DNA of 33,358 nt from IMG/VR virus record IMGVR_UViG_2740892218_000011; one strand, given 5' to 3'. This stretch comes from a virus. Lineage: Duplodnaviria; Heunggongvirae; Uroviricota; Caudoviricetes. Positions 7,925 to 9,202 of this stretch are shown here, piece by piece. Positions within the stretch are counted from its first letter, which is position 1. Every line of letters begins with the position of its first letter. The position numbers were made by a program, and so were the translations under genes. Below the pieces are notes generated by a model. It was not told where the DNA came from, did not search any database, and worked only from the letters and a program-made list of their open reading frames with translations.

Positions 7925-8884
7925 ATGAAAATTTGCATCGACGACGGCTCCACCAACATCAAGCTGGCATGGACTGAGAACGGCGAACGCCGCAACGCCA
8001 TCAGCCCGAACAGCTTCAAGTCGGAATGGTCTGCGCCGTTCGGTGGCACGCAGCCCGCGAACTACATGCTTGATGGCGTGCGCTATGGTTTTGATCCGGT
8101 CAGCGATCGCTTTGTCCAGACGACCGACACGCAATACCAGTACAGCGATGTGAATGTCATTGCCATTCATCACGCGCTGGTCAAATCAGGTATCACACCA
8201 CAGGAAGTGGACGTGGTTGTCACTCTGCCACTGAGCGAGTATTTCGATACAAACGCACAGCCGGACATGGCCAACATCAACCGCAAAAAAGCGAATGTCC
8301 TGCGCCCTGTGGAGTACCAGAACGGTGAAGCATTCACTATCCGCAACGTGCGGGTTATGCCTGAATCCATTCCGGCTGGCTTTAAGGCACTGGCTGACAT
8401 GAGTCCGTTTGAATCCCTGCTGATTGTGGATTTAGGCGGAACAACGCTGGATGTGGCAAAGGTTCAGGGGCAACTGGCAGGCATCAGCCAGGTATTTTGC
8501 GATCCACATGTGGGCGTTTCCCTGATGACCGATGCCGTGTTGTCGGTGATGGCCGCCAACGGCATGCGTACCAGTCACCACGTCGCCAGTACCGTTATTG
8601 AACATCGTCACGATGAAGCCTGGCTGCGCCGGCACATCCACAATGACGCGCATTACAACAGCCTGATGGCAGTTATTCGTGAAAAGGAGGAGACACTAAA
8701 ACAACGCGTGATCCGCGCACTCGCGGGCTTTTCGGGTTACGGGCGGGTGCTGGTTGTCGGTGGAGGAGCGGAGATTGTGGCACCCGCAGTCCATGAAGTC
8801 TATGGAGTCAATGCGAATTTCATCACAGACGGGGTGCCACAGTTTGCTCTGGTTAACGGTCTGTACGCTATGGATAAGGAGTAA
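7925..8884 (+). CDS. parM: Actin-like segregation ATPase ParM/StbA
   Basis: 319 aa; motifs recalled from plasmid R1 ParM: IDDGSTNIKL, SPNSF, YSDVNV(I/V)A(I/V)HHAL, VMPESIPAG, L(I)IDLGGTTLD, GVSL, FSGY, GGGAE, LVNG. Confidence 0.85.
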   Translation: MKICIDDGSTNIKLAWTENGERRNAISPNSFKSEWSAPFGGTQPANYMLDGVRYGFDPVSDRFVQTTDTQYQYSDVNVIAIHHALVKSGITPQEVDVVVTLPLSEYFDTNAQPDMANINRKKANVLRPVEYQNGEAFTIRNVRVMPESIPAGFKALADMSPFESLLIVDLGGTTLDVAKVQGQLAGISQVFCDPHVGVSLMTDAVLSVMAANGMRTSHHVASTVIEHRHDEAWLRRHIHNDAHYNSLMAVIREKEETLKQRVIRALAGFSGYGRVLVVGGGAEIVAPAVHEVYGVNANFITDGVPQFALVNGLYAMDKE

Positions 8885-8890
8885 CCCTCC

Positions 8891-9202
8891 ATGGCGACAT
8901 TAACCAGAAGAATAAGTTTCTATCTGAAGCCAGCCGCCGTCAAGAACGAAGGCAAAGCATGCGACTGGCTGGACAGCCTTACACCAGAAGCCCGCAAAAG
9001 CGGCCAACGCGTGGCTTTTCTGGCCGGGCTGGCACTTCTGAAAATGAATCCGGCAGAGGCTTACCGACTGTCTGCATGGGCTGATGATGAGGCGTTATCA
9101 GTGACACAAACCAGGGCAGAACGCCACATGTTACAGCCAGCGCCCACCGCACAGATAACCAGTCAGATAGCCGGAAATATCCGGGCGTTATTTCCCGAAT
9201 AA
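8891..9202 (+). CDS. parR: ParR-like adaptor (putative centromere-binding protein)
   Basis: 103 aa, 7 nt downstream of parM; N-terminal RHH-like region (RRISFYLKP...RVAFLAGLAL) reminiscent of R1 ParR. Confidence 0.55.
   Translation: MATLTRRISFYLKPAAVKNEGKACDWLDSLTPEARKSGQRVAFLAGLALLKMNPAEAYRLSAWADDEALSVTQTRAERHMLQPAPTAQITSQIAGNIRALFPE

Follow-up and report, generated by a model that had tools for sequence, protein, structure and literature searches.

The parM–parR gene pair at positions 7925–9202 of a 33,358-nt stretch of tailed-phage DNA (IMG/VR record IMGVR_UViG_2740892218_000011; the whole stretch is called the window below) belongs to the same protein families as the ParMRC (StbAB) partition systems of plasmids R1 and NR1 and the ParMR systems of IncI/K plasmids. 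The window ParM is 46% identical to R1 ParM and 51–53% identical to its IncI/K counterparts, and the phage and plasmid loci have in common the order parM–parR, cis repeats upstream of parM and a C-terminal ParR motif. They differ in setting: the element that carries the phage pair is an integrated P88-like Escherichia coli prophage (P2 family, genus Xuanwuvirus), in which the module lies directly behind gpA, the gene for a rolling-circle replication initiator.

Two described systems on integrating elements invite comparison. SrpMRC of the SXT/R391 integrative and conjugative elements (ICEs) combines a ParM-type system with a rolling-circle initiator, a small centromere and a toxin–antitoxin system, and its function has been demonstrated, whereas the phage module is known here from its sequence (PMC4489591). 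SrpM and SrpR are distant from R1 ParMR; the phage proteins, in contrast, are close R1 relatives and their host element is a phage. The integrated Corynebacterium prophage CGP3 encodes AlpAC, an actin-like protein with a DNA adaptor. The adaptor binds promoter-region sites upstream of the operon, and these early-expressed genes act on circular phage DNA and are required for its full replication (PMC4446434). AlpAC comes from another host phylum and another actin-like subfamily; its adaptor gene precedes the actin-like gene, whereas in the phage module parM precedes parR.

The phage module itself has been noticed before. Both genes are annotated (ParM, partition protein) in phage P88 and its relatives. 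According to Rousset et al. (2022; PMC9122126), a putative partition system occupies the gpA–gpQ locus in about one quarter of P2-like phages, and the same authors proposed a role in plasmid maintenance. P88 was published as an active phage inducible by mitomycin, in a paper that leaves the partition genes unmentioned; the paper on PhiSM, a spontaneously active phage, lists the partition protein only as ‘fitness’ cargo. Given the reference-phage annotation and the work of Rousset et al., neither the finding nor its main interpretation is new. Here we add a phage-specific ParM group, a candidate two-site centromere, the boundary of the neighbouring hotspot, the assignment of hok to the phage cargo, and evidence of purifying selection.

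Results

ParM and ParR are intact relatives of the R1 partition proteins

parM (7925–8884, + strand) encodes a 319-aa actin-fold ATPase with matches in Pfam, PDB and BLASTP searches and in PHROG 691 (partition protein). Both Pfam ParM domains are present (StbA_N, E = 6.7e-82; C-terminal domain, E = 4.1e-65), and the protein can be aligned over its whole length to R1 ParM as crystallised (1mwk, E = 1.6e-91). DDGSTNIKL, VMPESIPAG, DLGGTTLD and GGGAE, which make up its nucleotide-binding motifs, read the same in 1mwk; the phosphate-1, phosphate-2 and adenosine motifs of an R1-type ParM are all in place. An earlier note on this DNA had proposed a ParM with actin-fold ATPase homology, and the proposal holds. 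At the level of coding sequence, parM is under strong purifying selection: dN/dS is 0.07 in a set of 71 distinct intact alleles and 0.10 when the window allele is compared with the rest. An internal stop interrupts one of the 47 distinct ParM proteins, and some truncated parM variants are present in databases. A ParM 93% identical to that of the window occurs in a contig of Vagococcus sp. WN89Y; this assembly bears a Firmicute label but is probably contaminated with enterobacterial DNA.

parR (8891–9202, + strand) starts 6 nt past parM, directly downstream as expected of an adaptor gene, and encodes an R1-type adaptor of 103 aa (PHROG 2515, partition protein). The ParR-like identity that had been suggested for this gene is borne out by a match to Pfam PF10784, Plasmid_stab_B (R1/NR1-type, StbB), at 84.8 bits against a cut-off of 25. 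The protein comprises a conserved N-terminal domain (TRRISFYLKP...AFLAGLAL), a hypervariable linker at residues ~66–90 and a conserved tail, NIRALFPE. Constraint follows the same division: dN/dS is 0.17 in the N-terminal domain, 0.63 in the linker and 0.06 in the C-terminal 13 residues. A near-neutral linker between constrained ends is the pattern expected if the DNA-binding and ParM-binding ends still work.

In an alignment, the strand-like motif RRISFYLKP and the helices after it are conserved among ParRs, and a C-terminal N-x-x-x-[LMF]-F motif is common to the plasmid, ICE and phage proteins; the tail is thus a putative ParM-binding peptide. The window ParR is the shortest of those compared. 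The others, R1 and IncI/K ParRs among them, have 116–140 residues and a helix segment after the core domain that the phage protein lacks. A low-confidence AF2 model of the monomer (pLDDT 55.7, N-terminus unmodelled) places helices at residues 20–61, a disordered linker, and a C-terminal helix at 86–100. A PDB sequence search with ParR returned no match.

Two palindromes upstream of parM form a candidate centromere

A 42-nt direct repeat in two copies (7782–7823 and 7855–7896, + strand) marks a candidate parC-like centromere/operator at 7782–7896; copy 1 overlaps the 3′ end of gene A. Each copy contains one GGG-N10-CCC palindrome, CGGGATTCACAAATCCCG at 7799–7816 and CGGGATTTCAGAATCCCG at 7872–7889, and the two lie 73 bp apart. 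Within the 33-kb window the motif is confined to these two sites, against a chance expectation of 0.08–0.22. A Hafnia prophage has two such sites, again 73 bp apart, and a Plesiomonas prophage has a 26-nt repeat with copies 72 bp apart. In all three lineages the paired sites lie ~52–59 bp before the parM ATG, and the sequence between the sites is not conserved. The Hafnia prophage has an extra open reading frame (ORF) between A and parM, yet the sites remain beside parM. In the window, the DNA of the first palindrome is conserved despite a 2-nt deletion that alters the gpA reading frame. By eye, ATTAATCAA before the ribosome-binding site is also conserved in three lineages; it makes a poor −10 element.

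The ParRs of the window, Hafnia and Plesiomonas have a common strand motif, TRR(I/V)SFYL. In the Serratia/Enterobacter subgroup, the ParR motif reads NRKISFYL and the upstream layout is a 14–20-nt inverted repeat with a 26–28-nt spacer. Plasmid systems are organised differently: an IncI/K comparator plasmid carries a T-rich repeat array with ~10-nt spacing upstream of parM, whereas the region upstream of the window parM contains no iteron array and has the two palindromes in its place. A small centromere has a precedent in srpC of R391, which consists of four 13-bp repeats (PMC4489591). The two palindromes are candidate ParR binding sites and likely constitute the centromere of the phage module.

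Other roles fit the palindromes less well. They look like intrinsic terminators on the minus strand of the window, but T-tracts are absent in Hafnia and Plesiomonas and nothing is transcribed into them. An RNA hairpin is less apt, since stem pairing is not conserved between lineages and conservation is limited to the spacing and the GGG/CCC ends; a protein-binding site suits this better.

parMR is an inherited module of one P2-like lineage

The 2-kb parMR region of the window is ~93% identical in DNA and 95% identical in protein to phage P88, Citrobacter phage PhiSM and others. P88, PhiSM and E. coli P2-like prophages carry the same module at the same position; the window differs from the P88 and PhiSM copies in its empty hotspot, its particular parR allele and the 2-nt deletion at the gpA end. 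In protein searches, phage ParMs are at least 90% identical to one another and plasmid ParMs all reach 53% at most. Intermediate ParMs from Hafnia (63%), Plesiomonas (62%), Serratia (60%) and Enterobacter (53%) are all encoded in P2-like prophages, where the gene order is gpA, (0–2 ORFs), parM, parR, variable genes, (ogr), portal. A neighbour-joining tree, built without bootstrap, sets the phage-linked ParMs apart from those of R1 and IncI/K plasmids. Of two relatives at 49% identity, one is in a Dickeya ICE and one in an integrated plasmid; the ParM of the P1-like phage-plasmid D6 is 46.5% identical.

parMR has a match in ~1440 of 5426 complete E. coli genomes, with most of the query covered in 624–664 of them. 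Together with the P88 annotation and the remarks of Rousset et al., this abundance contradicts the view of the earlier note that such a module is unexpected in an integrating, rolling-circle phage. The occurrences in complete E. coli genomes number 1640 on chromosomes and 2 on plasmids, so that >99.8% are integrated. A single phage-sized circle was found among 72,556 plasmid records (PLSDB). NZ_CP148288.1, a complete P88-like phage of 34,461 bp, was deposited as a circular ‘plasmid’ and is joined at att; a sister strain (NZ_CP148378.1) has an integrated phage that is 100% identical to it over a 4.8-kb gpA–parM–parR query. A contig scan of a collection with one genome per species gave three loci. 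Phage 500465-2 proved unusable as a parMR-less comparator, its record being a mis-bounded prophage that contains host genes.

parMR occupies the gpA–gpQ interval beside cos, where old/tin-type cargo is located, and had been taken for variable accessory cargo of that kind. Comparison of related prophages shows the opposite: the pair is constant even as the segment downstream of parR varies. Constancy within the clade and synteny at 53–63% ParM identity argue for a backbone module and against swappable cargo. On this comparative evidence, parMR is an inherited backbone module of one P2-like lineage, P88/Xuanwuvirus and relatives. Neither ParM nor ParR matched a PADLOC family. The element also differs from the phage-plasmids P1, D6, N15 and SSU5, whose prophages are normally extrachromosomal, in that it is integrated and abuts tRNA-Leu. 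In all five lineages, gene order makes parMR the last part of the rightward replication operon, and a consensus scan for terminators on the + strand found none in the interval from A to parM.

The variable hotspot begins downstream of parR

The insertion point of a variable (defence) hotspot lies at 9203–9283 and is empty in the window. The stop codons of parR and portal are 521 bp apart in the window, the shortest interval among 86 close loci, in which it reaches >2800 bp; sequence common with the relatives resumes at ~9283. Loci with 100% identical ParM carry at this point either a ClpX zinc-finger protein and small ORFs (locus L100, 11342–12287) or a pair of an AAA ATPase and an S8 peptidase, a candidate defence system (locus L101, 11664–14947). 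Because the variable segment is downstream of parR and parMR is constant, the hotspot begins after parR, not after gpA.

A hairpin formed by AAACGCCCT and AGGGCGTTT and followed by ATTTC stands at 9255–9277 (+ strand) and likely ends the rightward early/par transcript. Where a terminator had been placed after parR, the hairpin exists but is missing from the + strand list of the consensus terminator scan. It is present in ~20–24 of 85 relatives, a small share explained by its position in the variable junction.

Past the junction, TGCACAA repeats (three at 9285–9312 with 10–11 bp spacing and a fourth at 9377–9383) open a cos-proximal block common to ~60 of 85 relatives. We considered these iterons as a downstream parC and rejected the idea, as they belong to the cos-proximal block irrespective of cargo and have a P2 analogue in the TGCAT repeats beside cosR. 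A role in terminase/packaging recognition is more probable.

Features of the surrounding prophage

The genes around parMR are those of an integrase-bearing P2-like prophage, and the pair lies between A and the cos/portal region, as first described. The integrase (1–1002) marks the left end of the window. gpA (5028–7823, + strand; 931 aa; PF05840, E = 1.3e-128) is directly upstream of parM; at ~7762, near its 3′ end, two nucleotides of the clade consensus are missing (the 2-nt deletion noted above), so that the last ~20 codons are read in another frame and this gpA stops 25 nt earlier than those of P88 and E. albertii. By comparison with the right end of P2, the cos region falls between parR and portal gene Q (9724–10770, − strand; PF04860), which is followed by the large terminase gene (10770–12521, − strand). 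Chromosomal sequence universal in E. coli is limited to ~33236–33358, ~120 nt with tRNA-Leu and its terminator. In loci with identical ParM, the integrase abuts genes whose Pfam domains are like those of E. coli yecA and tyrP.

A hok gene for a Hok/Gef toxin (32152–32292, + strand; PF01848, E = 3e-7) adjoins ogr. The earlier note had assigned it to a neighbouring chromosomal locus; it sits inside the prophage. The same ogr–hok adjacency is found in the circular phage record NZ_CP148288.1, and the stretch is outside the universal chromosome, from which we conclude that hok is phage cargo. Both classical stability functions of R1, parMR and hok, therefore have a homologue in the phage. A mok-like ORF overlaps hok directly after ogr (32022–32292), and another remnant resembling hok/mok is found closer to the tRNA-Leu end (~33033–33152). 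Adjacency of ogr and hok is common in E. coli P2-like prophages.

Two further regions stand out. Between the integrase and the early operon, a low-GC block (1008–2530; 38–44%) encodes a YebY/DUF2511-like protein, a 216-aa Flk_N-like protein and a candidate HTH repressor, and is unlike the C/Cox module of P88. At the end of the tail-fibre region (22712–24791), a resolvase-family invertase (24183–24791) beside oppositely oriented ORFs suggests a Gin/Cin-type host-range inversion switch.

Discussion

The reading we favour, and put forward tentatively, is that parMR is a functional type II (ParMRC) cassette that moves the circular extrachromosomal copies of the phage itself once a cell is infected or the prophage induced. 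The products of P2-type gpA replication are monomeric double-stranded circles and thus plasmid-like substrates. parM and parR, the last genes of the rightward early (replication) operon, would be co-transcribed with A and expressed with gpA after infection or induction. ParR dimers would then bind the two GGG-N10-CCC palindromes of each circular phage genome, and the C-terminal tail of ParR would hold the ends of ATP-ParM filaments. Filaments growing between two ParR-bound circles could drive the copies apart. Replicating genomes would thereby be dispersed in space, with more efficient replication and packaging as the pay-off, as with AlpAC of CGP3; a further gain would be copies in both cell halves if division precedes lysis or integration. 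The module sits in live phages, as P88 is inducible and PhiSM spontaneously active.

Several observations weigh against this proposal. The candidate centromere has two sites only, in contrast to the iteron arrays of R1-type plasmid centromeres. The promoter search found no convincing sigma-70 promoter upstream of parM, which leaves gene order as the guide to expression timing. The ParR model, in which a ribbon-helix-helix fold would be expected, was of low confidence. The effect in CGP3 is just ~2-fold (PMC4446434). The module is absent from about three quarters of P2-like phages (PMC9122126), so any benefit must be dispensable. A bolder claim is less likely than not: that a P2-like lineage conserves, as part of its replication operon, a phage-specific ParMRC branch with a minimal centromere of two sites and a shorter ParR, and that this provides a small actin-type cytoskeleton for monomeric phage circles, which would position them in replication and packaging or give both daughters a copy before integration.

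A somewhat less probable account follows SXT/R391. Here parMR, from its own ParR-autoregulated promoter overlapping the second palindrome, would join hok/sok in preventing loss of an unintegrated or excised gpA-replicating circle across divisions, be it while lysogeny is being established, following reversible excision or in a carrier state. This would make sense of the union of integrase, rolling-circle initiator, ParMR and Hok toxin in one element, and R391 follows the same logic: TraI-driven replication, srpMRC (with its similarly small srpC of four 13-bp repeats) and hipAB each lower loss (PMC4489591). The ParMR relative in a Dickeya ICE and the att-joined circle with its integrated, identical counterpart in a sister strain point the same way, and maintenance is the idea proposed by Rousset et al. 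(PMC9122126). The distribution does not: chromosomal occurrences overwhelm plasmid ones, the plasmid records hold one phage-sized circle, and this lone circle may be induced phage DNA assembled as such. Nor was the promoter that this account needs detected upstream of parM. Under P2-type regulation, moreover, expression of the early operon leads to late genes and lysis, while under repression gpA is silent. Cells that divide while a free circle replicates in them should therefore not last long. Maintenance and the favoured movement of circles differ in their predicted promoter use and deletion phenotypes.

The circular ‘plasmid’ of 34.5 kb and the related ParM that serves D6 could also be taken to mean that these are true phage-plasmids, long-term extrachromosomal prophages. 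We think this improbable. The earlier note had raised an episomal phase, but with >99.8% of occurrences integrated a stable plasmid lifestyle is unlikely; an integrase is present, chromosomal tRNA-Leu abuts the right end, and no plasmid-type replicon was recognised, gpA being the sole replication function among the annotated, Pfam-checked genes. About as improbable is the suggestion that the module was repurposed for exclusion, defence or incompatibility, for example against incoming plasmids or phages. The gpA–gpQ interval does host old/tin and many defence systems (PMC9122126), but neither protein has a PADLOC match, the module is constant while true cargo varies downstream, and the partition architecture is complete, with ATPase motifs, adaptor tail and cis sites beside the genes. 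Cross-interference with plasmids is unlikely, since plasmid ParMs are so divergent and their repeats different. Least credible of all is a functionless hitch-hiker or relic of old plasmid–phage recombination; the truncated parM variants in databases would suit it, but the low dN/dS, the single interrupted protein and synteny across genera down to 53% identity do not.

If the circles are indeed moved by ParMR, this would be the first such system in a tractable temperate phage of E. coli, and it would explain two plasmid-type stability functions, parMR and hok, in an integrating phage. The question is why an integrating rolling-circle lineage, found in about a quarter of E. coli genomes, retains an intact actin-type segregation machine, and it can be approached by experiment because live phages are available in P88 (E. 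coli) and PhiSM (Citrobacter). The answer bears on where the P2 defence hotspot starts, after parR rather than gpA, and on how temperate phages handle their extrachromosomal phase.

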